This document shows, piece after piece, positions 29,017 to 49,100 of a stretch of 64,000 nt of DNA. Each line of letters starts with the position of its first letter. Position 1 is the first letter of the stretch. A model generated the notes under the pieces. That model did not search any database, was not told where the DNA came from, and was given only the letters and a program-made list of their open reading frames with translations. Source of the DNA: Methanospirillum sp. (GTDB lineage: Archaea; Halobacteriota; Methanomicrobia; Methanomicrobiales; Methanospirillaceae); NCBI GenBank assembly GCA_012728895.1, contig JAAYEG010000065.1, forward strand, positions 7,538 to 71,537, in the 5' to 3' direction. A program made the translations under genes and the position numbers.

Positions 29017-31269
29017 TCAGGGTGACACGGGGGCCGGGGAGCCGACCGAGCGGCGGTGCTCGAGCCGGGCCTGGATCCGGTCCATCACCACGAGGGCCGC
29101 GGGCATCACCACGATCGCGCCCGTCAGGCTGAAGAGGACCGCGAAGACGGTCGTGACCCCGAAGTTCGAGATCAGGGGGAAGTTCGAGGCGAAGAGGGCC
29201 GAGAAACCGGCCGCCGTCGCGAGCCCCGAGACCAGGATCGCGCGGCCGATCCGCTGGACCGAGTGCTCGATCGCGACGAAGACGTCCCCGTACTTCTCTT
29301 TCTCCTCGAGAAACCGCTCGAGCACCAGGATCGTGTACTCGGCCGCAACCCCGATCGTCATCGAGCCGAGGACCGCGGTCAGCGGGGTGTACTCCATGCC
29401 GAGCACGGTCATGGCGACGGCGTTCCAGCCGACCACCGCGACGATCGGGATCAGCGGCGCGGCCGCGTGGACCTTCCGGTAGACCAGGAGCAGGACGGCC
29501 AGGACCCCGACGAACCCGAGCACGGTCATCCGGTCCTTGTTGTTTGCGATGTCGCCGATCAGGTTCGTGAAGAGCGCGAACGACCCGCTGGGCTCGGCCT
29601 GGATGCCAACCGGCGGGGAGACGTACGCGAGGTCGGCCTCGAGCTGCCTCTTGAGGGCCGCCTGGACCGGCATGTCCATCGTGGTGGAGCCGAACGAGAT
29701 CTGCGCCGTGCCGTGGCCCGAGAGGTACGGCTCCTTCGCCGACGCCGGCATGGCGTCGAGCACGGCGCGGAGCTCGCTCTCCGTCGATGGCAGGGTCCCG
29801 CCGTGGTACTGGACCACCAGGTCGGCGATGCTGGTCGCGCCGGTCAGCCGGTCGGCGTGGTGCGTGAGCGCGTAGTCCTCGAACTCGAGCATCCACCGGA
29901 GCGTGTCCAGGCTGTCGACCCCGTCGCCCCTGACCAGGATCGGGACCGGCGTGGTCGAGCCCATGCTCCGGCTCACCTTCTCCATCTGCACCAGGGCCGG
30001 CATGTCCTGCGGAACGAACGTGTTCTCGTCGGTGGAGATCGGGATCGACGGGTCGAGCGCGACCCCGAGGAGGGCCACGAGCCCGACCACGGCGAGGAGG
30101 GGGAGGGGGTTCTTCGCGATCCTCACCGAGAGGGTGGCGAGCAGGCGGTCGGGCCCGGTCGCCTGGCGGACCTCGGTGTGGACGCCCTTCGGCCTGTACC
30201 CGGTCAGCCGGGCGATGAGGGGGATACCGACGAGCGAGACCGCGTAGCAGGCCACGATCCCGGTGATCGCGACGAACGCGAAGCCCCCGATCATCGGGAT
30301 GGGCGAGATGAAGAGCGGCGCGAAGCCCATGGTGGTCGCGACCATCGCCCAGAAGACGGCCGGCCCGGTGTTCTCCATCGTCTCTCGGACCGCCACGGGG
30401 AGCGGGCCCTTCCGCGCCTCCTCCTCGAGCCGGGCGTGGAACTGGATCGCGTAGTCGACGCCGAGCCCGATCAGGATCGGGAACGCCCCGATGGCGGCCA
30501 TGGTGATCTTGACCCCCGCGAGCCCCAGGACCCCGAAGGTGATGACCAGGCCGATGCCGACCATCAGGACGGGCAGGAAGCGGTGGCTGACGTACCCGAA
30601 GAGGAGGCCCACCGCGCCCACCAATAGCAGCATCGCGACCCCGACGAGCGTGCCCGTCGAGGTCCCCATCTCGGTCCCCATCTGCTGGGCGAACGCGCTG
30701 CTCCCGGTCACCGAGACGGTGGTCCCGGGCGGGACGTCCGAACTCGAGACGAGCGACTGGATGTTGTCGAGCGCCGCGGTGCTCTGGTCGAGGGAGAGGC
30801 CCTGGTCGAGCGCGACCTGGACCAGCGTGAAGGTGTTGGACGGGACGTACCGTTCGAGCAGGCTCGCGGGGACCTGCGCCTTGACCGCGATCACCTCCGC
30901 GGCGGAGGTCGGGACTCTCCCGCCGTTCGCCTGCTTGACCAGATCGGCGATCGAGGCGACCGACGCGACGTGCTGCTGCCTGCGCAGGTCCGACTCGAGC
31001 GAGTCCAGGAACTGGAGCTGCTCGACGCCGGTCGAGTCGTCGGACTCGACGAGGATGATGACGGCATCGGAGGACCCGAATGTCGTCGTATAGGTGTTGT
31101 AGCTCTGGCCGAAGGGGGTGGACCCGTCCAGGTAGCCGTCCGTCCCGGTCTCCATCGTGATCAGGGTCGTCCCGTAGAGCGAGGCGACGAGCACGACCAG
31201 GAGAAGGCCGGCCACGACCTTCGGGTAGCCGTTGATCAGCCCGGCAAGCAGCGTGAATGGGGATCGCAT
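29017..31269 (-). CDS. RND-superfamily (MMPL / COG1033-type) exporter
   Basis: 750 aa with two blocks of about 6 TM helices separated by large loops. The N-terminus MRSPFTLLAGLINGYPKVVAGLLLVVLV is typical of predicted exporters of this family. Confidence 0.8.
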   Translation of the reverse strand: MRSPFTLLAGLINGYPKVVAGLLLVVLVASLYGTTLITMETGTDGYLDGSTPFGQSYNTYTTTFGSSDAVIILVESDDSTGVEQLQFLDSLESDLRRQQHVASVASIADLVKQANGGRVPTSAAEVIAVKAQVPASLLERYVPSNTFTLVQVALDQGLSLDQSTAALDNIQSLVSSSDVPPGTTVSVTGSSAFAQQMGTEMGTSTGTLVGVAMLLLVGAVGLLFGYVSHRFLPVLMVGIGLVITFGVLGLAGVKITMAAIGAFPILIGLGVDYAIQFHARLEEEARKGPLPVAVRETMENTGPAVFWAMVATTMGFAPLFISPIPMIGGFAFVAITGIVACYAVSLVGIPLIARLTGYRPKGVHTEVRQATGPDRLLATLSVRIAKNPLPLLAVVGLVALLGVALDPSIPISTDENTFVPQDMPALVQMEKVSRSMGSTTPVPILVRGDGVDSLDTLRWMLEFEDYALTHHADRLTGATSIADLVVQYHGGTLPSTESELRAVLDAMPASAKEPYLSGHGTAQISFGSTTMDMPVQAALKRQLEADLAYVSPPVGIQAEPSGSFALFTNLIGDIANNKDRMTVLGFVGVLAVLLLVYRKVHAAAPLIPIVAVVGWNAVAMTVLGMEYTPLTAVLGSMTIGVAAEYTILVLERFLEEKEKYGDVFVAIEHSVQRIGRAILVSGLATAAGFSALFASNFPLISNFGVTTVFAVLFSLTGAIVVMPAALVVMDRIQARLEHRRSVGSPAPVSP

Positions 31270-31326
31270 GAGACCTCCTGAGAGAGAACGGGCGGCCGGC
31301 CGCGAGGGGCCGGCCGATCGAGCCGT

Positions 31327-32628
31327 CTAGGCCGAACCCTTCCGGCGGCGATACACGACATACCCGCCCCCGATCAGCAGGGCCGCGATCAGCGCGAGCA
31401 CGAGCGGGGACCCGAGGAGGCTGCCCCCGGGGGTGACCGTGACGGAGACCTTCATGGTGTCGGAGATCTGGGAGTTGTCGAGCGCGTCGCGGTACCGGAC
31501 CTCGGAGTCGAGGCCGTACTCCTTCGCCGTCGCGCCCGCGTCGACCGAGACCTCGAACCGGGCTGCCTTCTCCTCGCCGGGCTCCATGTCGCCGAGGAAC
31601 GCGGTGTCGTCCGAGGAGGTGAACGGGTCCACGGCCGAGAGCCGCGCCTGGGCCGCCGCGACGGGCGCGGCGCCGGTGTTCCGGTAGACGACCTCGAGCA
31701 CCGCCTTCTCGCCGGCCGCGACCGATGCCGGGGCCGAGACCACGGCGAAGCCGATCTTGCCGCCGACGGGGACACCGATGGTCACGGGCCGGCCCGTCCG
31801 GTTGATCCCGTCGGTATCGTCGTAGCTGACCATGATATCGAGGGGATAGGACTGGGCCCCGGCCTCGCTCGAGACGGCGACCCGGTACCGCAGGTGCACG
31901 GTCTGGCCCGGCGCGAACGCGCCGACGAACACAGAGCTGTCGACCGGGGTGACCGGGGACTGGCCGTTCCGCGCGACGCGGACGATGGCGTTGGTCGCGG
32001 GCTCGGCCCCGGCGTTCTTCACCGTGAGGTTCAGGTAACCCTCGGTCCCGACGTTGAGCGACTCGGTCGTGACGTTCACGACCTCGAGCACGGCCTCGGG
32101 CTTCACGGTCAGGGCCAGGGGGATAGTCTCGCGGACCTCGCGGTACTGGTAGTTGATCGAGTCGCCGCCGATCTGCTCGGCCGAGGCGAGGTGGGTGTAG
32201 GTGAGGGCCAGCGGCAGTGTGTACGTGCCCGCGGGCGTGCCCGACGGGATGCGGACCATGAAGGTCGCCGGCGCCGCGGCGCCGCCGGGGATGTCGCCGA
32301 CCATCTGCGGGTCGGACTCGACCGCGATACCGCTCGCGCCGCCCAGGCCGACGGTCAGGGACTTGGCCGTGTTCGGGAGGTCCGTCCGCTCGACGATGGT
32401 CGTGCCGACCATCTTCGAGTCGATCAGGCCCGAGTTCTGGACGACGACGTTCAGGGGTACCGTCTGGCCGGCGGGGACCTCGTTCGACCCCGCGATCGAG
32501 GCCGAGAGGACCGGGCCGCCCGACGTGTACTTCGCCCCGGCCGCAACCGGGGAAACGATGACGGCAGCGATGAGAAGCGCGGCAACCGCGCACCCGACCG
32601 CTGCCCGGAGAGATACACTCGTCTGCAT
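31327..32628 (-). CDS. COG1361-type cell-surface (S-layer-domain-like) protein with C-terminal TM anchor
   Basis: Signal peptide, then repeated beta-rich CARDB-like segments (LNVVVQNSG, LNLTVKNAGAEPATN, LEVVYRNTGAAP). C-terminal LVLALIAALLIGGGYVVYRRRKG. Confidence 0.7.
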   Translation of the reverse strand: MQTSVSLRAAVGCAVAALLIAAVIVSPVAAGAKYTSGGPVLSASIAGSNEVPAGQTVPLNVVVQNSGLIDSKMVGTTIVERTDLPNTAKSLTVGLGGASGIAVESDPQMVGDIPGGAAAPATFMVRIPSGTPAGTYTLPLALTYTHLASAEQIGGDSINYQYREVRETIPLALTVKPEAVLEVVNVTTESLNVGTEGYLNLTVKNAGAEPATNAIVRVARNGQSPVTPVDSSVFVGAFAPGQTVHLRYRVAVSSEAGAQSYPLDIMVSYDDTDGINRTGRPVTIGVPVGGKIGFAVVSAPASVAAGEKAVLEVVYRNTGAAPVAAAQARLSAVDPFTSSDDTAFLGDMEPGEEKAARFEVSVDAGATAKEYGLDSEVRYRDALDNSQISDTMKVSVTVTPGGSLLGSPLVLALIAALLIGGGYVVYRRRKGSA

Positions 32629-32773: not shown

Positions 32774-34117
32774 ATGACCCGCCTCGATGCCGAGCTCGCG
32801 CGCATCCGGGAGATCCTCCGCGACCAGCTGCAGGGCATGTCCGTGACGGAGATCGCCGCGGCGCTCGGGAGGAACAAGCACTCGGTGGGGCGGTACCTCG
32901 ACGTGCTCCGTGCGTCCGGACAGGTCGAGATGCGGACCTTCGGGATGGCAAAGGTCTTCACCCTGGCGAAGAGGCTCCCGGTCGCGTCCATGCTCTCGAT
33001 CGCGGACGAGCCGATCCTGGTCCTCGACGAGGAGCGGCGCGTCAACGAGGCGAACGACGCCGCCCTCGCCCTCCTCGGGCTGCCGCGGGAGCGCGTAATC
33101 GGGCAGCGGCTCGACTACCTCCCGGCCCCCGATCCCCTGGTCCACGACCTTGTCCGGGAGATCGCCCTGGCGGCGGCGGGCCAGGCGACCAGCACCGAGA
33201 TCCACCTCGAGGGCGAAGACGAGCGCTGGTACTGGTGCCGGGCGATCCCGATGGTCTTCGAACTGGGCGAGCGCGGAGTCGTCCTGGTGCTCGCCGACGT
33301 CACCGAGCAGCGCCGGGCGGCCGAGGCGCTCGCGGCGTCCGAGGCCCTCTTCCGCGGGCTCGCCGAGAACGTGCAGGACGGCGTCCTGATCTACCGCGGC
33401 GAGACCCTCGTCTTCGCGAACAGCCGGGCGACCGAGTTCCTGGGGAGCGACCCGGGCGAGGGCGACCTGGCCCGGCTGGTGGCGGAGGTCGACCGGGAAC
33501 GGGCCGCGGCCCTGATCGCGGCGCATGTCGCCGACCCGCTCCGTCCCCGGGAGTTCCGGTGCTGGGTGCGGCGGGACGGTGCGGAGCGCTACCTGTACGC
33601 GCGCCTCTCGGCGGTCGAGGACGACGGCGAGGTGACGCGCTACCTGGTCCTGACCGACATTTCCGAGGAACACCGGGCCGAGATGGCGCTCCGAAAGCAG
33701 GCCGTCTTCGTGCAGCACTTCCTCGACGAGTTTCCGCACCCCTTCTACACCCTCGACGCCGCCGGCGTCTTCGTCGAGTGCAACGACGCCTTCGCCGCCA
33801 TGGTCGGGCGAGGGCGGGAGGACGTGGTCGGCGCGACCGTGGACGAGGTGGTCCCCGGGGAGGACCGCGAGGCCTTCGTCGTGGCCGACGCCGGGGTGCT
33901 CGAGCGGCCCGGCGAGCGGGTCTACTGCACGACCCTCACGGTCGCGGGAGAGGGGCGGACGCGGTTTCTCGTCCGGAAGTCGAGCCTCCGGATCGGGGAC
34001 GAGGGACGCCCGGTCGTGGTCGGCGTGCTGATCGGCCACCCGGATGCCGGCTCGAACCCCCGGTCGGCAGTCATCCCCGGGGACCCGGCCGCAGACGACG
34101 TGCGGGACACGCAGTAA
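32774..34117 (+). CDS. winged-helix HTH plus PAS domain protein (paralog of 13760..15562)
   Basis: MTRLDAELARIREILRDQLQGMSVTEIAAALGRNKHSVGRYLDVLRASGQVEMRTFGMAKVF, followed by PAS-like repeats. No catalytic output domain. Confidence 0.8.
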   Translation: MTRLDAELARIREILRDQLQGMSVTEIAAALGRNKHSVGRYLDVLRASGQVEMRTFGMAKVFTLAKRLPVASMLSIADEPILVLDEERRVNEANDAALALLGLPRERVIGQRLDYLPAPDPLVHDLVREIALAAAGQATSTEIHLEGEDERWYWCRAIPMVFELGERGVVLVLADVTEQRRAAEALAASEALFRGLAENVQDGVLIYRGETLVFANSRATEFLGSDPGEGDLARLVAEVDRERAAALIAAHVADPLRPREFRCWVRRDGAERYLYARLSAVEDDGEVTRYLVLTDISEEHRAEMALRKQAVFVQHFLDEFPHPFYTLDAAGVFVECNDAFAAMVGRGREDVVGATVDEVVPGEDREAFVVADAGVLERPGERVYCTTLTVAGEGRTRFLVRKSSLRIGDEGRPVVVGVLIGHPDAGSNPRSAVIPGDPAADDVRDTQ

Positions 34118-34271
34118 ACCCCGGGAGAGGACCGCGTTGCACCGGGGGCGCGGCTGCCCCGGGCGGAGGCGGGGGGGCGGCTCCGAACTCGAAGGCGGAC
34201 GTGCGGGGTGCGACGGCCCCCGGCGCGGCGGGCGGCTCCCGGGAGAGGAAGCCGTGGAATAATAAAATAGC

Positions 34272-34281
34272 AATATTTATT
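34272..34281 (+). promoter_or_regulatory. AT-rich TATA-like element upstream of the ADC/SDR cluster
   Basis: AATATTTATT lies ~35-45 nt upstream of ATG 34316. GAGGA sits at 34305..34309. Confidence 0.4.
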
Positions 34282-34315
34282 CCGGTTCTCACTACATCTT
34301 CACCGAGGAACACCG

Positions 34316-35134
34316 ATGTTCAGGTTCGACGAGACCAGGACCTACCGGATGCCGCCCTTCTTCGGCGGAACCGCCCCGGCGGCTCCGGACTTCGCGGTCC
34401 GGAACCGCGACGCGACCGCCATGGCGTTCACCTGCACCACGGACGAAGAGATGCTCGCGCAGCACGTCCCCGAGTGCTTCGAGATCCTGCGGCCCGAGGT
34501 GGTCTACACCTTCGGCCAGCTCCGGGAGATCGACTGGCTCGCCGGGGGGCGGTACAACGTCGTCACGGCCGACGTGCCGGTCCGGTTCAACGGGACGCGT
34601 GACCGGCTCGAGGGGAACCTGAACCTGGTCACCTGGGAGAACCTGGCCACCCCGATCATCGGGGGGCGGGAAGAGAACGGCGTCCCGAAGATCTACGCCG
34701 AGATCCAGGACCTGCACGCGGGGGCAGCGGGCTACCTCGGCGCGCCCGACTACTTCACCAACGCGAGCTACGACGGCAACACCTTCGTCAGGATGGAGAT
34801 GCGGGACCCGGTCCCCGTGGAGGGGGAGCGGCTCGCGGCCCTGAAGGCCGCGATGGCCACCGTCAACCTCCTCTGCTGGCGCTACATCCCGAACGTCAGC
34901 GGCCCCGGGGCGGCGCTGAGCCAGCCGATCCTGTACCCCCAGGGGGCCGAGGTGCACAGCGCCTGGACGGGGACGGGCTCGGTCGAGTGGATCCGGCTCG
35001 CGCCCTGGCAGAACCCGATGCAGCACCACATCGTCAACGCCCTCGCGGACCTCCCGATCCTGGCGATGGCCCCCGTGATGCTGGTGCAGAGCACCGCCGT
35101 GCTGAAGCCGAGCCAGGGGCGGGTGCTGGAGTAG
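34316..35134 (+). CDS. acetoacetate decarboxylase (ADC) family protein 1
   Basis: DVPVRFNGTRDRLEGNLNLVTWENLATPIIGGREENGVPK aligns with the clostridial Adc region PVSFNG...EPAIAVGRELSAYPKK (Schiff-base Lys). C-terminal AWTGTGSVEW resembles AWTGPTRLQL. Confidence 0.8.
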   Translation: MFRFDETRTYRMPPFFGGTAPAAPDFAVRNRDATAMAFTCTTDEEMLAQHVPECFEILRPEVVYTFGQLREIDWLAGGRYNVVTADVPVRFNGTRDRLEGNLNLVTWENLATPIIGGREENGVPKIYAEIQDLHAGAAGYLGAPDYFTNASYDGNTFVRMEMRDPVPVEGERLAALKAAMATVNLLCWRYIPNVSGPGAALSQPILYPQGAEVHSAWTGTGSVEWIRLAPWQNPMQHHIVNALADLPILAMAPVMLVQSTAVLKPSQGRVLE

Positions 35135-35186
35135 GCCTGCCCGGGACGCGGGCGGGAAACACGATCCACCACCGGAGGACTATCAC

Positions 35187-36023
35187 ATGAACAACCAGGG
35201 CTACTACACGGACAGGATCTGCATCGTAACGGGCGCGAACTCCGGCATCGGGTACGCGCTCAGCGAGGAACTGCTGAAGCGGGGCGCGACCGTCTACCTG
35301 CTCGGGCGGGACCCGGCGAAGGTCGCGGCCGCCGCCGGCAAACTCTCGTCGCACGGGGACCGGGTGCGGACCCTCGTCGCGGACGTGACGGACTGGGAAC
35401 AGGTGCGGACGGCGATCGAGGGCGCGGCAGCGGAGGCCGGAAGGCTGGACATGCTCTTCAACAACGCCGGCATCGGCGGCACCCTGCAGTTCGAGAAGGC
35501 GACCCTCGAGGACTGGAAGAAGATCATCGAGACCAACGTCTGGAGCGTGGTCTACGGCGTGCACGCGGCCTTCCCGATCATGCTCCGGCAGGGCTCGGGC
35601 CACATCGTGAACACCAGCTCGGCGGCCGGCATCGTCCCCCCGCCGTTCCAGGCGCTCTACTCGCTCACCAAGTTCGGCGTCACCGGCATGACCGAGTGCC
35701 TGCGGTACGAGTTCGCGGAGAAGGGGCTCTTCTTCTCGACGATCTGTCCGACCAACATCGCGACGCCCATCTTCCAGAGGTCGGCCGACGGCCCGGTGAA
35801 CGAGAAAGCGCCGATCCCCGACGACGCCTATCCCGTGGACCGGGCGGCCGTCGAGATCCTGGACGCGGTCGCCGAGCGGAAGGGGGTCATCGTCGTGCCC
35901 GAGGAGCCGGGCACGGCTGTCTGGCGGGGATGGGCCGCGGGAGACCCCGAGACGGAGGCGTATCTCATGCAGATGGCGCACGACCGCCGGGTCGCGTACG
36001 AGACGAAGGGGTCGTACTTCTGA
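35187..36023 (+). CDS. short-chain dehydrogenase/reductase (SDR), type a, copy 1
   Basis: TGANSGIGYA, NNAG and SSAAG...YSLTK (Ser-Tyr-Lys). Confidence 0.9.
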   Translation: MNNQGYYTDRICIVTGANSGIGYALSEELLKRGATVYLLGRDPAKVAAAAGKLSSHGDRVRTLVADVTDWEQVRTAIEGAAAEAGRLDMLFNNAGIGGTLQFEKATLEDWKKIIETNVWSVVYGVHAAFPIMLRQGSGHIVNTSSAAGIVPPPFQALYSLTKFGVTGMTECLRYEFAEKGLFFSTICPTNIATPIFQRSADGPVNEKAPIPDDAYPVDRAAVEILDAVAERKGVIVVPEEPGTAVWRGWAAGDPETEAYLMQMAHDRRVAYETKGSYF

Positions 36024-36042
36024 GGGCGGCGCTGGGGGGACC

Positions 36043-36897
36043 ATGGAGACCGGCGACTACTACCAAAAAAAGGTCTGCATCGTCACGGGCGCGAACTCCG
36101 GCATTGGGTACGCGCTCTCGGAGGAGCTGCTGAAGCGCGGCGCGACCGTCTACCTGCTCGGGCGCAACGCGGCGAAGGTCGCGGAGGCGGCCGGAAAGCT
36201 CGCGGCGCACGGGGACCGGGTGCGCACCCTGGTCGCGGACGTGACGGACGGGGCGCAGATGCGGGCGGCCGTCGAGGGCGCGGCAGCGGAGGCCGGCCGG
36301 CTCGACCTGCTCTTCAACAACGCCGGCGTCGGCCTGACCGTCCCGTTCGAGCGGATCGGCCTTGACGAGATGCGGGCGGTCATCGACGCCAACCTCTGGA
36401 GCGTGCTCTACGGGACGCACGCCGCCGTGCCGATCATGCTCCGGCAGGGCTCGGGCCAGATCGTCAGCACCTCGTCGATCGGCGGGCTCATCCCGGTGCC
36501 GTTCCAGTCACTGTACAACACGACCAAGTTCGCCGTCACCGGGCTCTCCGAGTCGTTGCGGTACGAGTACGCGGCGCGGGGGATCTCGTTCTCGGCCGTC
36601 TGCCCGTTCTTCATCGCGTCGGCCATCTTCAGCAAGGGCCTCGACGGCAGCACGGGCGACCAGGGGATCCCCGCCGGCGCCTACCCCGCGGACCGTGCCG
36701 CGGCCTTCATCCTCGACCGCGTCGCCGAACGGCAGGGGATCATCGTCGTGCCCGAGGAGCCGTTCCTCGGGCTCTGGCGGGAGTACGCGAACGGCGATCC
36801 GGGCATGGAGGCGTTCATGCTGGAGACCGCGAGGATGCGTGGGCAGCAGGTGGAACGGGGCGAGACGCCGACGGCGGTGCCGCCGCTCCCCCCATGA
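36043..36897 (+). CDS. short-chain dehydrogenase/reductase (SDR), type b, copy 1
   Basis: TGANSGIGYA, NNAG and SSIGG...YNTTK. Confidence 0.9.
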   Translation: METGDYYQKKVCIVTGANSGIGYALSEELLKRGATVYLLGRNAAKVAEAAGKLAAHGDRVRTLVADVTDGAQMRAAVEGAAAEAGRLDLLFNNAGVGLTVPFERIGLDEMRAVIDANLWSVLYGTHAAVPIMLRQGSGQIVSTSSIGGLIPVPFQSLYNTTKFAVTGLSESLRYEYAARGISFSAVCPFFIASAIFSKGLDGSTGDQGIPAGAYPADRAAAFILDRVAERQGIIVVPEEPFLGLWREYANGDPGMEAFMLETARMRGQQVERGETPTAVPPLPP

Positions 36898-36934
36898 CGC
36901 CGGGAGGCGGACGACAGGAGTGGAGGTGATCCGT

Positions 36935-37729
36935 ATGTTCGAGATCGATGATTCCCTCGACTACACCATGCCGGCGCACTTCGGCGGCACGGAGCTGGTG
37001 CCCGGGCACGTGGCCACGCAGCGCGTGACCGCCCTGGTGATCGCGTACGAGACCGACCGGGCGCTCCTCGAGGCGTTCGTCCCCCGTGAGTTCACGCTCC
37101 GCGCCCCGGAGGTGCAGGTGATGTTCGCCACGTTCGCCGGGGTCAACTGGCTGGCCGGCGCGCGGTACAACCTGGTCAACGTCTCGGCGCCCGTCCGGTT
37201 CGACGGGAGCAGGGACCACCTGGACGGCGATTACACGCTCGTCACCTGGGAGAACAGCACCGAGCCGATCCTGCGGGGACGGGAGCAGTCCGGGGTCCCC
37301 AAGGTCTACGCGGAGATCCAGGACCTGCGCGAGGTCGGGCCGTATTACTCCACGAACGCGAGCTTCGCGGGAAACACCTTCCTCTCCCTGGAGTTCGAGT
37401 CCGCGGGCCCGCTGGCGGGAAGCGAGCTCGGGGAGGTGCGGGCCGGGATGGCGACCCTGAACACCATCGGCTGGCGGTACATCCCCCGGATCAACGGCCC
37501 GGGAGCGGACCTCTCGCAGTTCGTGCTCTTCCCGCAGGGGCTGGACCTCGAGCGGGCCGAGGCGGGGGCGGGGAGCCTGCGCTGGACCGCGCTCTCCTGG
37601 ATGCAGCACCCGACGCAGCACCGGATCATCGAGGGCCTGGCCTCTCTGCCGGTGGAGCGGGTGACGCGGGCGGTGCTGGGGGAGGGGACCGGCGTGCTCG
37701 ACCGCCTTGGTTCGCGCCTGCTCGAGTGA
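36935..37729 (+). CDS. acetoacetate decarboxylase (ADC) family protein 2
   Basis: ATG after GGAGGTGAT. SAPVRFDGSRDHLDGDYTLVTWENSTEPILRGREQSGVPK. Collinear with 34316..35134. Confidence 0.8.
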   Translation: MFEIDDSLDYTMPAHFGGTELVPGHVATQRVTALVIAYETDRALLEAFVPREFTLRAPEVQVMFATFAGVNWLAGARYNLVNVSAPVRFDGSRDHLDGDYTLVTWENSTEPILRGREQSGVPKVYAEIQDLREVGPYYSTNASFAGNTFLSLEFESAGPLAGSELGEVRAGMATLNTIGWRYIPRINGPGADLSQFVLFPQGLDLERAEAGAGSLRWTALSWMQHPTQHRIIEGLASLPVERVTRAVLGEGTGVLDRLGSRLLE

Positions 37730-37778
37730 CCCGGCGCCGAAAACCACGAGAATGAACCAGAACTCAAAGGAGAATACA

Positions 37779-38615
37779 ATGACCAACCAGGACTACTACA
37801 AGGAGAAGATCTGCATTGTCACGGGCGCGAACTCGGGGATCGGGTACGCGCTCAGCGAGGAACTGCTGAAGCGCGGCGCGACCGTCTACCTGCTCGGACG
37901 CGACCCGGGAAAGGTCGCGGCCGCCGCCAAAAAACTCTCGTCGCACGGGGACCGGGTGCGCACGCTCGTCGCGGACGTGACGGACGGGGCGCAGGTGCAG
38001 CGGGCCATCGAGGGCGCGGCGGCGGAAGCCGGCCGGCTGGACATGCTCTTCAACAACGCCGGCATCGGCGGGACCATGCAGTTCGAGAAGGCCACGCTCG
38101 ACGACTGGAAAAAGTTGATCGATACGAACATCTGGAGCGTCATCTACGGCGTCCACGCGGCCCTCCCGATCATGCTCCGGCAGGGCTCGGGCCATGTCGT
38201 GAACACCAGCTCGGCCGCGGGCATCTTCCCTCCGCCGTTCCAGGCGCTGTACTCACTATCCAAGTTCGGCGTCACCGGCATGACCGAGTGCCTCCGGTAC
38301 GAGTTCGCTGAGAAGGGGCTGGCCTTCTCGACGGTCTGTCCCTCCAACATCGCGACGCCGATCTTCCAGAAGTCTCCCGATGGCACGGTCCACGACCAGC
38401 TGCCGATACCCGACGACGCCTATCCCGCGGACAGGACGGCCGTCGAGATCCTGGACGCGGCCGCGGAGCGGAAAGGGGTCATCGTCGTGCCCGAGCAGCC
38501 GGGTACCGATATCTGGCGGGGATGGGCGGCGGGGGACCCCGGGACGGAGGCGTTCCTGATGCAGATGGCGCACGACCGGCGCGTCGCGTACGAGACGAAG
38601 GGGTCGTACTTCTGA
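37779..38615 (+). CDS. short-chain dehydrogenase/reductase (SDR), type a, copy 2
   Basis: MTNQDYYKEKICIVTGANSGIGYA after AAGGAG. YSLSK. Most residues identical to 35187..36023. Confidence 0.9.
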   Translation: MTNQDYYKEKICIVTGANSGIGYALSEELLKRGATVYLLGRDPGKVAAAAKKLSSHGDRVRTLVADVTDGAQVQRAIEGAAAEAGRLDMLFNNAGIGGTMQFEKATLDDWKKLIDTNIWSVIYGVHAALPIMLRQGSGHVVNTSSAAGIFPPPFQALYSLSKFGVTGMTECLRYEFAEKGLAFSTVCPSNIATPIFQKSPDGTVHDQLPIPDDAYPADRTAVEILDAAAERKGVIVVPEQPGTDIWRGWAAGDPGTEAFLMQMAHDRRVAYETKGSYF

Positions 38616-38640
38616 GCGCGGCCCGCGGAAGGGGACGACG

Positions 38641-39474
38641 ATGGACGCGAGCGACTACTACCGGGAGAAGATCTGCATCGTCACGGGCGCGAACTCCGGC
38701 ATCGGGTTCGCGCTCTCGGAGGAACTGCTCAAGCGCGGCGCGACCGTCTATATGCTCGGGCGCGACCCCGCGAAGGTCGCCGGCGCCGCCGGAAAACTCT
38801 CGTCGCACGGAAGCCGGGTGCGGACCCTCGTCGCGGACGTGACGGAGCAACAGCAGGTGCAGGCGGCGGTCGAGGGGGCGGCGGCGGAGGCCGGCCGGCT
38901 CGACATGCTCTTCAACAACGCGGGGATCTTCCGGCCCCAGCTCTACGAGACGGCCACGCTCGGGGACTGGCAGACCATGATCGAGACCAACCTCTGGAGC
39001 GTGATCTACGGCGTCCACGCCGCCCTGCCGATCATGCTCCGGCAGGGCTCGGGCCACGTCGTGAACACCGCGTCGGTGGCCGGCCTGGACCCGTTCCCGA
39101 TGCAGGAGATCTACAACACCACGAAGTACGCGGTCGTCGGGCTCTCCGAGAGCCTGCGGTACGGGTTCGCGGAGAAGGGGATCGCCTTCTCCGTGATCTG
39201 CCCCGGCGACATCGCGACCCCGATCTACTCCAAGGTGACCGACCGCGAGGGCCGCGGGACAGAGACCCCCGCCCACGCGTACCCCGCCGATGCCGCGGCC
39301 ACGTACTCCCTCGACCGGGTGGCGGAGCGGAAGGGGATCGTCGTCGTGCCCGAACAGCCGTACACCGACCTCTGGAGGGGGTACGTGGTGGGAGATCCGG
39401 GCGTGGAGGCCATGCTCGTCCGGATGGCGCACGACCGCAGGGTGCTGCTCGAGACAAGGGGGACGTATATCTGA
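38641..39474 (+). CDS. short-chain dehydrogenase/reductase (SDR), type b, copy 2
   Basis: TGANSGIGFA, NNAG and YNTTK. Confidence 0.9.
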   Translation: MDASDYYREKICIVTGANSGIGFALSEELLKRGATVYMLGRDPAKVAGAAGKLSSHGSRVRTLVADVTEQQQVQAAVEGAAAEAGRLDMLFNNAGIFRPQLYETATLGDWQTMIETNLWSVIYGVHAALPIMLRQGSGHVVNTASVAGLDPFPMQEIYNTTKYAVVGLSESLRYGFAEKGIAFSVICPGDIATPIYSKVTDREGRGTETPAHAYPADAAATYSLDRVAERKGIVVVPEQPYTDLWRGYVVGDPGVEAMLVRMAHDRRVLLETRGTYI

Positions 39475-39523
39475 GACCTCCGTCGTCTTCTCGAAGGGTG
39501 TCATCGGCGGGGGAGAGGTAACC

Positions 39524-40834
39524 ATGAACGACGATACGACGCACCGGGACCCTGGCGGTCCGCACACACTCCAGTCCTACGCACAGCACAGGGCCGAGGT
39601 CGACCTCTCGATCGAGGTCGTGCTCCTGCTCGTCGGCGGAGTCTTCTTCCTGATCTTCGGCCTCCTCCTCTTTCCGATCGGGACGGGAGCGCTCCCCTAC
39701 AGCGAGGGCGCCATGTACGGGCTCTTCGTGGTGCTCGTCTCGATGCAGATCATCACCATGGGCAAGACCCCGTTCGGCGACCTGCTCCGGTCCTGGATCG
39801 TGGTAATCGCCGGGATCGTCACGGCCATCGTCGGGACGCTCGCCATCTTCTACCCCGGGGAGACGACCGGGCTGATCCGCGTGCTGGCCGGCGCGATCGT
39901 CCTTGTCACGGGGGCGCTCGGGCTCGTCCAGCTCGTCACCGCAGAGGATCGTGCACGGACCTGGCTGCGCGTCCCGGGGGTGCTGCGGCACCTGGCCGTC
40001 GCCTGCGCCGCCGTGTACGCCCTCGAGGTGGTCCTCGGGGTCATCACGCTCGTTCCTGGGGTCGTGCCCGTGGGGCTCACGGCGGGGATCTGCGTCGCCT
40101 TCGGCGCCGCCCTCGTGTACCTCGCCTGGGCGATCCACTCGGTCACGGCCCGGTACGCCCCCGAACCGGCGGAGGAGAAGGCGGCGGCGACGGGGGAGAG
40201 CCGGAGGGAGCGCCGCCCCCGCGGCCTCTTCGGAGAGGCCGGGCTCTCGGTCGGCGACTCGTTCAACGTCTTCCAGGGCGTCCTCCTGCTCCTCCTCGGG
40301 TGCCTGGTCCTCTTCATGATCCTGGGCGCGATACCGGCCTTCAACGCCGACGGCCAGCTCGGCCTGCTGCTGGTCCTGACCTCGCTCCAGATGCTCGCCC
40401 TCGGGCAGGTGGTGGGGAGCACGGTGACGCGCTCCTGGCCGCTCGTCGCCGCCGGGCTCGCCTTCGCCGCGATGGGGATCGTCTCGTGCATCGTCCCGGG
40501 GGTCCTCTCCTCGGTGATCTCGCCGCTCCTCGGGGTCCAGAACATCATCACCGGGGTGGTGCTCCTGGGCACCCAGGTGATCGGGCCGACCCTCTTCGGC
40601 ATCCGTCACCCCCCGGCCGAACCGGTGGCGATCCCCCCGCTCGTCAAACGACTCCTGCTCGTCCTCGCGGCGACCGGGATCGTGGCGATCCTGTTCGGCC
40701 TGAACATGCTCGCGCCGTTCCTCCTGCCTGGCCTGCTGGGGGTGGTGGCCTTCGCACTCTTCCTCCCGATCCTGATCGTGGTCATGGGGCTTCTGACCCT
40801 GGTAACGGTGCAGATCACCCGGAAACTGGGGTGA
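39524..40834 (+). CDS. polytopic membrane protein with internal duplication (two ~200-aa hydrophobic halves joined by a charged linker)
   Basis: The two halves share a pattern: ...GALPYSEGAMYGLFVVLVSMQIITMGKT... versus ...AFNADGQLGLLLVLTSLQMLALGQV.... The linker is EPAEEKAAATGESRRERRPRG. A DUF308/HdeD-like guess is from memory only. Confidence 0.7.
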   Translation: MNDDTTHRDPGGPHTLQSYAQHRAEVDLSIEVVLLLVGGVFFLIFGLLLFPIGTGALPYSEGAMYGLFVVLVSMQIITMGKTPFGDLLRSWIVVIAGIVTAIVGTLAIFYPGETTGLIRVLAGAIVLVTGALGLVQLVTAEDRARTWLRVPGVLRHLAVACAAVYALEVVLGVITLVPGVVPVGLTAGICVAFGAALVYLAWAIHSVTARYAPEPAEEKAAATGESRRERRPRGLFGEAGLSVGDSFNVFQGVLLLLLGCLVLFMILGAIPAFNADGQLGLLLVLTSLQMLALGQVVGSTVTRSWPLVAAGLAFAAMGIVSCIVPGVLSSVISPLLGVQNIITGVVLLGTQVIGPTLFGIRHPPAEPVAIPPLVKRLLLVLAATGIVAILFGLNMLAPFLLPGLLGVVAFALFLPILIVVMGLLTLVTVQITRKLG

Positions 40835-40926
40835 CGGGGCAGCGGGGCGGTTCTCCCCCCCCTCGCAGTCCCGGGCTGGAAAACCGGTGGCCACAGGCCT
40901 CCGTAAACCAACAGAATTACCAGTTG

Positions 40927-40932
40927 TTTTTT
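40927..40932 (+). terminator. T6 tract downstream of the ADC/SDR/membrane gene string
   Basis: cagttgTTTTTTcat lies ~90 nt after the stop at 40834, at the start of an AT-rich spacer. Confidence 0.4.
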
Positions 40933-40968
40933 CATTTGATATTATTTCTTTTTGACATTTTAGAAAGT

Positions 40969-40992
40969 TAATAAAGTTGACAACGTTTATTA
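40969..40992. promoter_or_regulatory. 7-bp inverted repeat TAATAAA-N10-TTTATTA in the AT-rich mod promoter region
   Basis: Read directly from the sequence. The right arm doubles as a TATA-like element ~70 nt upstream of modA. Confidence 0.35.
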
Positions 40993-41059
40993 CTCATATG
41001 AGCCAAAATATCGACGCGGCCAGGATCCTCGATCCTGGCATATCCAGTCTGGAGAAATC

Positions 41060-41827
41060 ATGGAAACCAACTACCGCCGTATCGCGGCGATGGGTGCATG
41101 TCTCATCGCCGGTCTCCTGTTACTCTCAGCGGGGTGCGTCAGCCAGGATGCCCCGCTGAACCTCTATGTGGCCGCGGGCCTGAAGAAGCCGATGGACGTG
41201 GTAATCGCGAACTACAGCGCGTCCTCCGGGTCCGACATCACTCCGAACTACGGCCCCTCCGGTGGACTCTATGCCCAGATCAACCAGAGTCAGCCCTGTG
41301 ACCTCTATTACTCGGCCGACTACAGCCTGATCGAGAAACTCGAGGCGGAGGGCAGGGTGAGCGAGGCCAGGAAGCTCATGAAGGAGTTCGTCGTACTGGC
41401 CGTGTCCAAGACCGGGCGGGAGAAAGGAATCAGGAACGCCTCCGACCTGACAGCGCCCGGCACCGTCGTGGCAGTCGCCGATCAGAGCGCCCCCGTCGGC
41501 GTGTACTCCGAAAACGTGCTCCGGAACCTGGGGCTCCTGGATCAGCTCAACAGCATGGGCAACATCAGGACGCGTCCCGGCACCGTGAACCAGGTGGCCC
41601 TGATGGTCCAGAGCGATGAGGTGGACGCCGGCTTCACCTACAGCAGCACCGCCAACCTCTACGACCTGGATGTCGCAGAGAAGTACGGCTACGATCTGTC
41701 CGAGGAGATCGTCTTCGGCGCCGCGGTGATCAGGGGAGGGAACGAGGAGAAGGCGAAGGACTTCATGAATTTCGTCGATCAGAACATCGAGGAGTTCACA
41801 AAATACGGCTGGGAGATCTATGCGTAA
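41060..41827 (+). CDS. modA: molybdate (or tungstate) ABC transporter substrate-binding lipoprotein
   Basis: Lipobox LLLLSAGC. LYVAAGLKKPMD...PNYGPSGGLYAQI...DLYYSAD matches the ModA pattern AAxSL...SSGxLxxQI...DVFxSA. Confidence 0.8.
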   Translation: METNYRRIAAMGACLIAGLLLLSAGCVSQDAPLNLYVAAGLKKPMDVVIANYSASSGSDITPNYGPSGGLYAQINQSQPCDLYYSADYSLIEKLEAEGRVSEARKLMKEFVVLAVSKTGREKGIRNASDLTAPGTVVAVADQSAPVGVYSENVLRNLGLLDQLNSMGNIRTRPGTVNQVALMVQSDEVDAGFTYSSTANLYDLDVAEKYGYDLSEEIVFGAAVIRGGNEEKAKDFMNFVDQNIEEFTKYGWEIYA

Positions 41828-42608
41828 GGTGAGCATCTGGGAAGTACTCTTCGTCCCCCTCTTTTTCCTCCTGATCTTCTACCCGATTCTCGCCATCCTC
41901 GGCAACGTCACCCTCGATGGGATGGCAAAGACCTTCGGGGACCCGGTGTTCTGGGACGCCGTCAAGAATACCCTCGGAACGGCCTTCTGTGCGGCGCTTC
42001 TCGGCGTGCTGATGGCCCTCGGGTTCGCGTATTTCTACATCTTCCACCCCGGGACCGTCATCTACAGGATCGCCGATTTCATGAACGACCTCCCGATCGC
42101 CCTCCCCCACACCGTCGCGGGGCTCGCCCTTCTCCTGGCATTCGGCAGGAACATGTTCGGGTTCGCCGGGCCGACCGGGCTCGCGTTCACCCTTGTCGCT
42201 GTGATCCTGGCCATGTTCTTCGTCTCCTACCCCCTGGCAGCCCGGACCATCGCCTCGTCCGCGGAGGAGATCGACAGGGAGCTGATCAACGTCGCCAGGA
42301 GCCTCGGCGATTCGCCGCCCCGGGCCTACCGGCGGATCGTCATCCCGCTCCTGGGCGAGGCGATCTTCTCAGCGTTCGTGCTGGGATTCTCCCGCTCGCT
42401 CTCGGAGTTCGCCGCGGTCATCATGTTCGGCGGGAACGTGCCCGGGATGACCATGGTGCTCGCCAGTTACGTCTTCACCAAGGTGGAGGAGGGAGAGGTG
42501 AGCATGGCCGTCACGGCCAGTGCGTTCTGTATCCTCCTGTCACTGCTGCTCGTGCTCTTCCTGCGCCTGGAGGTGAAATTCCGTGCTCGAAGCAAGAGAA
42601 CTGCATAA
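41820..42608 (+). CDS. modB: molybdate ABC transporter permease
   Basis: Overlaps the modA end by 8 nt. About 5-6 TM helices. EAA-loop-like ARSLGDSPPRAYRRIVIPL. Confidence 0.8.
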   Translation: MRKVSIWEVLFVPLFFLLIFYPILAILGNVTLDGMAKTFGDPVFWDAVKNTLGTAFCAALLGVLMALGFAYFYIFHPGTVIYRIADFMNDLPIALPHTVAGLALLLAFGRNMFGFAGPTGLAFTLVAVILAMFFVSYPLAARTIASSAEEIDRELINVARSLGDSPPRAYRRIVIPLLGEAIFSAFVLGFSRSLSEFAAVIMFGGNVPGMTMVLASYVFTKVEEGEVSMAVTASAFCILLSLLLVLFLRLEVKFRARSKRTA

Positions 42609-43269
42609 GTCATTCGACGATCGCCACGTCCTCAAGGGGGTCACGTTCGGCGTCGGACCCGGGGAGATCAGGGTCCTGATCGGGCTGAACGGGTGTGGCA
42701 AGACCACGCTCCAGCGGATCATCACCGGGATCCTCGAGCCCGACTCGGGCTCGATCAGGATCGGGGGAGAGGAGATCACCGCCCTCCCCCCCGAGGAGCG
42801 GCAGCTGGGCTACGTTCCGCAGAACACCGGCCTGTTCCCTCACCTCTCCGTCCGTGAGAACATACTCTATTCTCTGAAGAACGGACGGGGCTCGGTGGAG
42901 TCCTTCCACGGGATGGTGGAGCTCCTGGGCCTCGAGACGTACCTCGACCTGAAGCCGAAACAGCTCTCGGGCGGGTACAGGAGCCGCGTCTCCCTGGCAC
43001 GCGCCCTCGCGTCCTCGCCGAGGGCGATGCTCCTCGATGAGCCCATAACGGAGGTTGACCGGGCAAAGAAGGAGTTCGTCCTCCCCCTCTTCCGAGAGAC
43101 CCTCCTGGGGTTGAAGATCCCCGTCCTCTACATCACCCACGACCCCTGGGAGGCCGGGGAGATCGGCACCTCCTTCTCGATCATGAAGGGCGGGGTGATG
43201 AGCCCGATCTCCTCCCCCGAAGAGGCCTTTGCCGTGATCCGGCAGGAGGCCAGGGACTCCGGGGAGTAG
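42583..43269 (+). CDS. modC: ABC transporter ATP-binding protein of the mod operon (short form, no TOBE domain)
   Basis: GTG start overlaps the modB end. Walker A GLNGCGKTT, signature LSGGYRSR, Walker B MLLDEP. Confidence 0.8.
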   Translation: MLEARELHKSFDDRHVLKGVTFGVGPGEIRVLIGLNGCGKTTLQRIITGILEPDSGSIRIGGEEITALPPEERQLGYVPQNTGLFPHLSVRENILYSLKNGRGSVESFHGMVELLGLETYLDLKPKQLSGGYRSRVSLARALASSPRAMLLDEPITEVDRAKKEFVLPLFRETLLGLKIPVLYITHDPWEAGEIGTSFSIMKGGVMSPISSPEEAFAVIRQEARDSGE

Positions 43270-48083: not shown

Positions 48084-49100
48084 AGGTGTCTCCTCGGAAG
48101 GGGTAGGAGTTATCAGCGGGACCCGCGGTTGACGGTGAACTCCATCACCGATCGTACTCAGGCGTGCGGCAACGTCAATCTTCGCGCCGGAGCCGGTCGG
48201 AACCATCCCGGGACCCTCTGCGCAGGGCCCTGTGCGGCCAGCCTGGAGGGGGGGGGGCGATCCGCGAGATCGCGAAGGCCCGGTCCCTCGATTGTTTCGA
48301 GCTCCCCGAGCAGGGAGAGCCCGGCGAGGACGTGGCCGGCCAGGAAGACTCTCGCAAACGAGCCGCCCGTTCCCCGGAGAAACCGGGTGAGTGCGACCCT
48401 TGCGCGGTCGGCCGCGACAGGCCCCCGCCGCCATCGGGCGACGAGGGCGTGCCGGGTATCGGCCGCGTCGGCTCGGGGAGCCGCCAGAAGCGGTTCCCGC
48501 CCACGCCGCAGCCGTTGCGGCGGCACACCGGGGGACCGCCGGCTGTCCGGGGAGAAGGGGCAGCGTGCGTGCCCCGGCAGGAGTCACCCGCCTCGCGGGG
48601 GTCCCGGGGCGGACCCCATCGCCTCCGGTGACCGATGGCGCGGTACCGGGACAAGGCTGTCCCCCTGCTGGAACGCCCTCCTCGCCTGGTGATGATGAAC
48701 GTGCAATCGGCGCCGAGGGGGCCGTGGTCACCATGAGGTCGACCCGTCACGGGCACGCTCCGCCGGAAGAGATCGCGACAGGCCTTGAGGGCGTCCCTGT
48801 CCTGATCCCGGCCCCCGGCATGACGATCGAAAACCCTGGCCCGGGGGATGCCGGCGCATGAACGAGGGGTGACGGCATCGATGAGAGGAAGAAGATCCCT
48901 GCTACCGCCTGGAGCAGGTGAACCGTCCCCTCGCGCCCTCATCGCGAGTCGGTCACTCGAGGGGCTCCGCCTCGCGACAGGCGGTACCAGCGACGCGATA
49001 CGGAGGAGCGCCGATGCGCGCCCTGCCGATCCTCACGTCGATGGGATCCGGCCCACGGATGGAGAAACCTACAAGCGTACTGACGTTGTGGGGATCTACG

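Follow-up and report, generated by a model that had tools for sequence, protein, structure and literature searches.

Organisation of the seven-gene cluster

The 64-kb stretch of a Methanospirillum sp. genome analysed here (contig JAAYEG010000065.1; hereafter the window; G+C ~69%) carries seven + strand open reading frames (ORFs), spanning 34316-40834, which encode two proteins of the acetoacetate decarboxylase (ADC) superfamily, four short-chain dehydrogenases/reductases (SDRs) and a polytopic membrane protein that we call MEM. From sequence comparison we conclude that the locus is a lineage-specific expansion (two ADC-like genes, four SDR genes and one fused MEM gene) of a compact cassette made up of MEM, an ADC-like protein of the type represented by the structure 3CMB, and an SDR. 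The features of the locus are as follows.

32774-34117, + strand: protein with a helix-turn-helix (HTH) and three PAS domains, putative regulator of the operon (Pfam PAS_4/PAS/PAS_9 and weak N-terminal HTH matches; TIGR00229 sensory box)
34256-34283, + strand: AT-rich promoter-like element GGAATAATAAAATAGCAATATTTATTCC, containing the TATA/BRE (B recognition element)-like AATATTTAT; putative promoter or operator
34316-35134, + strand: ADC1, 272 aa, ADC superfamily, 3CMB branch (PF06314, 105 bits; Schiff-base Lys125)
35187-36023, + strand: SDRa1, 278 aa, classical SDR, predicted to be NADP(H)-dependent (adh_short, E 2e-53)
36043-36897, + strand: SDRb1, 284 aa, classical SDR of a separate clade (adh_short, E 5e-52)
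36935-37729, + strand: ADC2, 264 aa, ADC superfamily, 3CMB branch (PF06314, 122.7 bits; Schiff-base Lys123)
37779-38615, + strand: SDRa2, 278 aa, classical SDR (287 aa if started at 37752 instead; adh_short, E 1.5e-54)
38641-39474, + strand: SDRb2, 277 aa, classical SDR of a third SDR clade (adh_short, E 1e-52)
39524-40834, + strand: MEM, 436 aa, polytopic membrane protein with two homologous six-helix halves and a charged linker (weak DUF308 match)
40927-40953, + strand: oligo-T runs T6 (40927-40932) and T5 (40949-40953), terminator-like, within an AT-rich stretch (40903-41015); putative site of termination

The intergenic gaps are, in order, 52, 19, 37, 49, 25 and 49 nt, and a purine-rich, GGAGG-like stretch resembling a ribosome-binding site lies ahead of every one of the seven start codons. 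With a single AT-rich promoter-like element at one end and one T-rich, terminator-like end at the other, the seven genes look like one putative operon. Five stretches in the window reach at least 70% A+T over 30 nt, two of which exactly bracket the cluster. The upstream element (90% A+T in an intergenic region of 70% G+C) is the sole AT-rich sequence between the regulator gene and ADC1. In this genome it is bracketed by a 7-nt inverted repeat, GGAATAA/TTATTCC, and its core, GGAATAA..AAATAGCAA..TTTAT, is kept ahead of homologous clusters in three related metagenome-assembled genomes (MAGs; L026, L009 and L016). L018 and L026 have orthologues of the regulator, 85-87% identical, upstream of their homologous clusters. 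At the cluster, the public gene calls for identical anaerobic-digester contigs (Joint Genome Institute) are all on the + strand, which suggests that the long ORFs of the opposite strand are G+C artefacts; for SDRa2, public calls use either choice of start.

A sequence-only reading of this DNA had described seven same-strand genes with gaps of 19-52 nt in the order ADC, SDR, SDR, ADC, SDR, SDR, membrane protein, together with an AT-rich element upstream, an oligo-T at 40927 and an HTH-PAS regulator gene immediately ahead of the cluster. The coordinates bear out the gene order and spacing, the two flanking elements are located at 34256-34283 and 40927-40932, and the regulator is recognised at 32774-34117 by both Pfam and TIGR00229. 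The enzyme families proposed in that reading also hold for all six proteins, with PF06314 matching both ADC-like proteins and adh_short the four SDRs.

The ADC-like proteins and their structural relatives

The Pfam match to PF06314 covers residues 12-252 and, at 105 bits for ADC1 and 122.7 bits for ADC2, lies far above the cutoff of 29.8. The Schiff-base segment anticipated by the sequence-only reading in both proteins reads GREENGVPK in ADC1 and GREQSGVPK in ADC2. Its lysines, K125 and K123, correspond in the alignment to K115 of the enzymes from Clostridium and Chromobacterium, and the residue is invariant in 18 diverse members of the family. The nearest structure, 3CMB from Methanoculleus marisnigri (Joint Center for Structural Genomics, JCSG), is matched over the full length by ADC2 (E 1.4e-98, 54% identity) and ADC1 (E 3e-74, 46% identity). 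The motifs of the branch, namely MPxxFG, WLxG..YN, LVxWEN, GRE..G.PK, WRYIP and Q..I...LA.LP, are present, with WEN, GRE..G.PK and WRYIP held in common with 3CMB. By these profile and motif comparisons, ADC1 and ADC2 belong to the uncharacterised 3CMB branch of the superfamily. They differ from 3CMB in that it is encoded in single copy whereas the window holds two old paralogues, one of which, ADC1, carries a 6-residue insertion. According to a description of its fold, 3CMB is tetrameric, not dodecameric.

Source annotations label proteins of this type "acetoacetate decarboxylase". The true decarboxylases of Clostridium acetobutylicum (Adc, 3BH2), Chromobacterium violaceum (3BGT) and Legionella (3C8W) fall in the same Pfam family and share the Schiff-base Lys in GRE..PK; however, they also have K116 and E76, for which ADC1 and ADC2 have Ile/Val and Val/Leu, respectively. 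Thus PKK becomes PKI or PKV, and the YTESGQ segment of true ADCs aligns with YNVV or YNLV. Of the catalytic Lys and Glu whose loss would have counted against the earlier family assignment, the Lys and the Glu of GRE are kept, while the position of clostridial E76 has changed. The two proteins score 43.6 and 30.2 bits with NF002614, the NCBIfam model of true ADCs, against a cutoff of 150. These scores and the replaced K116 and E76 speak strongly against a genuine acetoacetate decarboxylase (EC 4.1.1.4).

True ADCs in the PDB are nevertheless reached, with E values of 1e-3 to 1e-8 from single proteins and down to 1e-10 from a profile of the branch. In the PDB, the only matches of this profile at E <= 10 are 3CMB and three true ADCs; MppR and Sbi00515 were not detected. 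These two, with Swit_4259, show that the lysine-imine scaffold is capable of cyclisation, aldol condensation and dehydration, and, as is predicted for ADC1 and ADC2, they act within multi-enzyme pathways. They differ in lying in actinomycete antibiotic or polyketide-like gene contexts that are unrelated to the cassette of MEM, ADC-like protein and SDR. Sbi00515 and Swit_4259 we take to be non-decarboxylating members that carry out aldol condensation and dehydration on keto acids.

Two further members of the branch, P0383 and P0373, have features of exported proteins: in one there is a twin-arginine-like leader, RRAFIGTAAAMG, and the other, in which two ADC domains stand in tandem, has a lipoprotein-like N-terminus (LAAGCSED).

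Four classical SDRs with hydrophobic substrate loops

All four SDRs match adh_short in Pfam (E 1e-52 to 1e-54) and are, by family and motif, classical short-chain dehydrogenases/reductases. The TGxxxGIG, NNAG and Ser-Tyr-Lys motifs named in the sequence-only reading could be placed in each of them, as TGANSGIG at residues 15-22, NNAG at 92-95, and a catalytic tetrad of N117, S145, Y158 and K162. An Arg directly after strand beta2 is, by the usual SDR rules, a mark of NADP(H) preference, and because such an Arg is found here, we predict that the SDRs use NADP(H).

The top PDB matches of the SDRs are D-3-hydroxybutyrate dehydrogenases (HBDHs). With TIGR01963, the model of that enzyme, the scores are 142.8-147.6 bits against a cutoff of 307. 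In addition, the HBDH residues Q94, H144, K152 and Q196, whose carboxylate-binding roles we take from the Pseudomonas fragi enzyme, correspond to G, G, Q and G in SDRb1. The shortfall with TIGR01963 and the G/G/Q/G pocket make an identity as 3-hydroxybutyrate dehydrogenases very unlikely. The substrate loops of the SDRs are rich in Pro and Phe, with PPPF or PVPF and CPFFIA.

An internally duplicated membrane protein

The internal duplication of the membrane protein noted previously is confirmed: the halves of MEM are related (BLASTP E 3e-5), and its AlphaFold2 (AF2) model (pLDDT 78) has 6+6 helices joined by a disordered, charged linker. Relatives of MEM are encoded by a single gene of ~430 aa or by a pair of ~210 aa each, the pair being found in Methanoculleus and L004. 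Conserved polar residues (K81, D86, R89, R303 and C322) lie in its helices and loops, and it has conserved motifs of its own, MGKTPFGDLLRSW and a counterpart in the second half.

No NCBIfam model matched MEM, and an identical protein in the public record is named a hypothetical protein. DUF308 (PF03729) finds one repeat in the first half, at 26.8 bits against a cutoff of 25, and none in the second. Some sources name MEM homologues "HdeD (DUF308 family)", in line with this weak match; unlike HdeD/DUF308 proteins, MEM is twice as long, is internally duplicated or split, and has a fixed association with ADC-like and SDR proteins.

Paralogues of unequal age in a variable array

The sequence-only reading took the cluster for a tandemly duplicated module. 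The order of the genes agrees with this description, but a simple duplication does not account for it, as the paralogues differ in age and in clade. ADC1 and ADC2 are only 45% identical, SDRa1 and SDRa2 are 86% identical, SDRb1 and SDRb2 61%, and the remaining SDR pairs 61-70%. In neighbour-joining trees of 84 ADC and 69 SDR sequences, ADC1 and ADC2 are placed in separate clades, and the SDRs of the cluster are spread over three. ADC1 lies in a clade labelled Methanoregulaceae or Methanospirillum, as are the nearest relatives, and its 6-residue insertion, after the catalytic region, is common to that clade. ADC2 and one L016 copy are the sister group of the Methanoculleus/Methanobacterium clade that holds 3CMB. 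One clade takes in both SDRa1 and SDRa2, for each of which other MAGs have a separate orthologue. Two further clades are formed by SDRb1, which groups solely with an L016 copy, and by SDRb2, which groups with L009 and L016 copies.

Related MAGs hold other combinations of these genes. In L016 (6712-14210, from a MAG labelled uncultured Methanospirillum sp.) the array is larger still: MEM is accompanied by three ADC genes, each of a different clade, and by four SDR genes, and the order differs from that of the window. In L004 (GCA_037975395.1, 7398-16774), a close relative, the arrangement is ADC-SDR-ADC-SDR-MEM-MEM, with MEM split into two genes. This cluster lies in a dTDP-rhamnose/glycosyltransferase region, where it has rmlC/rmlB/rmlD-like genes on one side and an rmlA-like nucleotidyltransferase gene on the other. 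L009 has one ADC and two SDR genes. The locus can therefore be viewed as a variable array of units, each of an ADC and one or two SDRs, closed by the membrane protein gene.

The two parts of the SDRs have diverged to different extents. Over the first 95 aa, the cofactor half, all pairs are 79-88% identical, and the substrate half is 47-62% identical between types. At the DNA level (35187-39474), the first ~300 nt are 82-90% identical across the four genes and the 3´ parts 68-89%. A test for gene conversion based on codon identity at conserved residues gave 54-83% identical codons in every comparison, in a setting of extreme codon bias, and because of that bias the test does not discriminate between gene conversion and selection.

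A cassette found in anaerobes of both domains

Relatives, 223 in all, were collected with an alignment of ADC homologues as the query against genomes sampled at one per species; 79 loci were fetched, and partners were counted over 80 non-redundant ADC loci. The ADC-SDR association seen at the window's locus extends well beyond this genome, as these 80 loci come from both domains. The archaeal sources are Methanomicrobiales, Methanobacterium and Methanosarcina, with Methanothrix also carrying the MEM-ADC-SDR trio; the bacterial ones are Desulfobacterota, Syntrophorhabdaceae, Syntrophales, Anaerolineae, Actinomycetota, Clostridia, Bacilli and Selenomonadales. An SDR gene lies within 300 bp of the ADC gene at 57 of the 80 loci and within 5 kb at 69. 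MEM is encoded within 5 kb of the ADC gene at 43/80 loci. A second small membrane protein, TM169 (135-170 aa), which takes the place of MEM at some loci and shows no relation to it (hhalign probability 0.1), is a partner at 13/80, and MEM or another small membrane protein is near the ADC gene at 56/80.

Genomes of Methanoculleus have the same arrangement of ADC, SDR and two-half MEM. Bacterial MEM-ADC-SDR trios are compact, and their flanking genes are unrelated between hosts. Horizontal transfer has apparently carried the cassette between strict anaerobes in the two domains. The 3CMB-type branch is small, with 238 representative clusters at E <= 1e-30 among 1.84 billion proteins, and in the full-text library searched no account of the branch or of the MEM-ADC-SDR cassette was found. 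The enzyme superfamilies are familiar; the three-gene unit that they form, conserved across the domains and here expanded, is without an assigned function.

In two contigs of Methanothrix MAGs (L092 and L093; 4566-11828), MEM, SDR and ADC are grouped with a gene for a 646-aa enoate-reductase-like protein (Oxidored_FMN/Pyr_redox_2). This partner is absent from the window and from all other loci of the set. In L092, MEM and SDR are separated by IS605/Cas12f-like fragments, and a pair of short DUF362-like fragments resembles a broken copy of the protein described next.

Fusions to 3-hydroxyacyl-CoA dehydrogenases and a second locus in the window

In three representative proteins (P0378, P0387 and P0443; 675, 435 and 675 aa), an ADC domain of the 3CMB branch is fused to 3HCDH_N and 3HCDH domains. 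The fused ADC domain is 36-38% identical to ADC1/ADC2 and keeps the family motifs (two of the three were checked), and the dehydrogenase part is nearest to the NCBIfam model PRK08293, 3-hydroxyacyl-CoA dehydrogenase. Since the branch has SDR neighbours as well as these 3HCDH fusions, a dehydrogenase partner of the beta-hydroxyacyl type has been recruited on two independent occasions. The fusions hint at beta-hydroxy/beta-keto chemistry for the branch and are the strongest pointer to its chemistry that we found.

A different partner, an ~800-aa DUF362-containing protein (D362L), is encoded within 5 kb of the ADC gene at 24/80 loci. The window has its own copy, at some distance from the cluster, next to the remains of an ADC gene.

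53514-55952, - strand: D362L, 813 aa, DUF362-containing protein, 60% identical to the Desulfobaccales copy (L031) that adjoins an ADC gene
56071-56732, + strand: decayed ADC-like pseudogene, divergent from D362L, with ADC segments in three reading frames

The pseudogene has an internal deletion, its catalytic motif has decayed to GGLKGSGIQTLLA with loss of the Lys, and no gene is called in this region on the public contig. The pairing of D362L and ADC is intact in Methanosarcina, Clostridia and Desulfobaccales. Judging from these pairings, the D362L gene and ADC pseudogene of the window probably belong to the same gene network as the cassette. D362L has 953 homologues, and the best 120 of the 953, at 55-100% identity across archaea and bacteria, include none that is named. 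The EF-hand-like loop of D362L is invariant. Sequence searches of the PDB and NCBIfam gave no match to the protein, and its AlphaFold model (pLDDT 76) found no fold match in the PDB (best E 0.34). DUF362 and the N-terminal domain of lactate racemase (LarA) belong to one Pfam clan, which is a lead only.

Genes around the cluster

Directly downstream of the cluster, a three-gene ABC importer (41060-43269, + strand) encodes an SBP_bac_11 binding protein, a BPD_transp_1 permease and an ABC_tran ATPase. It is of the molybdate/tungstate/sulfate-binding type, has its own AT-rich region and appears to be a separate unit. Upstream of the regulator and divergent from it (29017-32628, - strand) are genes for a 750-aa MMPL/RND-type membrane protein and a 433-aa CARDB/Ig-like surface protein. 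The HTH-PAS regulator has a paralogue at 13793-14923 (+ strand; 33% identity over 395 residues by tblastn), and a fluoride riboswitch lies at 48097-48158 (- strand; Rfam RF01734, 53.5 bits against a gathering score of 34). Among the eight proteins searched for known anti-phage defence systems, no PADLOC model was matched.

A possible pathway for beta-hydroxy and beta-keto acids

We tentatively favour a model in which the cassette couples dehydrogenation at a beta-hydroxy/beta-keto position to lysine-imine cleavage of a C-C bond (probably decarboxylation) in a hydrophobic or amphipathic oxo-acid that is handled by MEM. In this model, which we regard as plausible rather than probable, MEM, with its 2x6 helices, would import, export or present an amphipathic or hydrophobic hydroxy- or oxo-acid, and the SDRs would interconvert its beta-hydroxy and beta-keto groups, with NADP(H) as the predicted cofactor. 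Lys125 of ADC1 or Lys123 of ADC2 would form an imine with the keto group, after which the adjacent C-C bond would be broken. Decarboxylation to a ketone would be the likeliest outcome, with retro-aldol cleavage or dehydration as possible ones, and the upstream PAS-HTH protein may switch the operon on. The uniform cofactor half of the SDRs, their divergent substrate halves and the old ADC paralogues together suggest several related substrates, which may differ in chain length or stereochemistry.

The model has a parallel in the two-step oxidative decarboxylation of beta-hydroxy acids, in which a dehydrogenase is likewise paired or fused with an enzyme directed at the beta-keto product; L-carnitine 3-dehydrogenase and L-gulonate 3-dehydrogenase, of the 3-hydroxyacyl dehydrogenase family, offer examples. 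The arrangement here differs in having an SDR, a separate Schiff-base decarboxylase-like partner and a dedicated membrane protein. The sequence-only reading had likewise proposed a dedicated beta-keto or carbonyl pathway with its own membrane component, and the cassette and the ADC-3HCDH fusions support that part of it; a role specific to methanogens is not supported.

Several observations weigh against this model. Decarboxylation is not assured, given the changes at K116 and E76 and the variability around R29: the N-terminal alignment is poor there, and an Arg is nearby in many members and is not invariant. MppR is a member of the superfamily that does not decarboxylate and uses the lysine-imine scaffold for other keto-acid chemistry; the earlier caution that the family leaves the chemistry open was right in this respect. 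The closest structure, 3CMB, is an unpublished structural-genomics entry, public since 2008. 3HCDH enzymes usually use CoA thioesters, which are not decarboxylatable. For MEM, a Foldseek comparison of the model with the PDB found no fold relative, the best match being a MATE transporter at E 0.06 and a TM-score of ~0.2. D362L is a partner at nearly a third of the loci (24/80), 10 of those 24 are without any SDR, and the enoate-reductase-like gene of Methanothrix, an immediate same-strand neighbour of ADC and SDR, is also compatible with enone chemistry.

This last gene bears on an aldolase-dehydratase or enone pathway of the Sbi00515/MppR type, an alternative that we consider unlikely. Here, the imine/enamine of the ADC-like protein would condense or cleave carbonyls or dehydrate beta-hydroxy-ketones, and the SDRs would reduce the products. 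An ene-reductase would join in some lineages and MEM would export or import, in the service of detoxification or salvage of the reactive aldehydes and unsaturated carbonyls of anoxic habitats. The missing K116 and E76 of true decarboxylases are in keeping with such a pathway, as is the way that characterised non-decarboxylase members of the superfamily work (MppR and, presumably, Sbi00515). NADP(H)-type SDRs suggest the reductive direction, and the presence of the cassette in very different hosts with unrelated flanks is as often seen with detoxification modules. However, the branch profile reaches true ADCs in the PDB and not MppR or Sbi00515, the enoate-reductase partner is confined to the Methanothrix loci of the set, and the 3HCDH fusions suit beta-hydroxy/beta-keto chemistry better.

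A role in modifying the cell envelope or membrane lipids, with MEM as a membrane enzyme or scaffold and the ADC-like and SDR proteins acting on a lipid-linked or polyprenyl intermediate, seems improbable to us. The position of the L004 cluster inside a dTDP-rhamnose (rmlABCD)/glycosyltransferase region is consistent with this role, as are the hydrophobic SDR pockets and the conserved polar residues of MEM, which is unlike any known transporter. Yet the flanking genes are wholly different between lineages, the cassette is found in archaea and bacteria, whose membrane lipids differ chemically, and the ADC branch also exists without a membrane partner, at the 10 loci with ADC and D362L only.

The sequence-only reading had considered a ketone or secondary-alcohol pathway in which secondary alcohols serve as electron donors for Methanomicrobiales, an explanation that we now regard as quite improbable. 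In its favour, secondary alcohols can be oxidised by SDRs, and the genome is a MAG of Methanomicrobiales, an order in which NADP-dependent alcohol oxidation is known to be coupled through F420. A specific tie to methanogens is not supported, however, given the occurrence of the cassette in sulfate reducers, syntrophs, Desulfobacterota, Syntrophorhabdaceae, Anaerolineae, Actinomycetota and Bacillota, and in acetoclastic Methanothrix, with unrelated flanks. The cluster has no F420-linked gene, and alcohol oxidation would leave the Schiff-base lyase without a role. Lastly, a ketone-body-type pair, in which a 3-hydroxybutyrate dehydrogenase and a genuine acetoacetate decarboxylase would yield acetone, could be read from the top SDR matches in the PDB, the ADC Pfam family match and the annotations, but is very unlikely and largely refuted by the scores with NF002614 (43.6/30.2 against 150) and TIGR01963 (about 144 against 307), the change of HBDH Q94, H144, K152 and Q196 to G, G, Q and G, and the replaced ADC K116/E76.

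Returning to the model of beta-hydroxy acid dehydrogenation and C-C cleavage, a far more specific version of it is that the cassette is a horizontally spread route by which free 3-hydroxy acids are oxidatively decarboxylated to methyl ketones. We see this as a long shot. If it were true, candidate substrates would be polyhydroxyalkanoate monomers or 3-hydroxy fatty acids from decaying biomass, and in methanogens the NADPH would feed CO2 reduction. The ADC and SDR paralogues would then cover chain lengths or stereoisomers, and D362L would be a further enzyme of the network. Such a route would add a new class of organic electron donor for hydrogenotrophic Methanomicrobiales, for Methanobacterium and even for Methanothrix.

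The hosts of the cassette, which include Methanoculleus, Methanobacterium, Methanothrix, Methanosarcina, syntrophs and sulfate reducers, run methanogenic carbon turnover. Identification of the substrate would fill a gap in annotation, given the "acetoacetate decarboxylase" label in hundreds of genomes, and could reveal a metabolite common to anoxic communities. With two old ADC paralogues, SDRs of three clades and one sensor-regulator, the expanded putative operon described here is a convenient place to study the substrate range.

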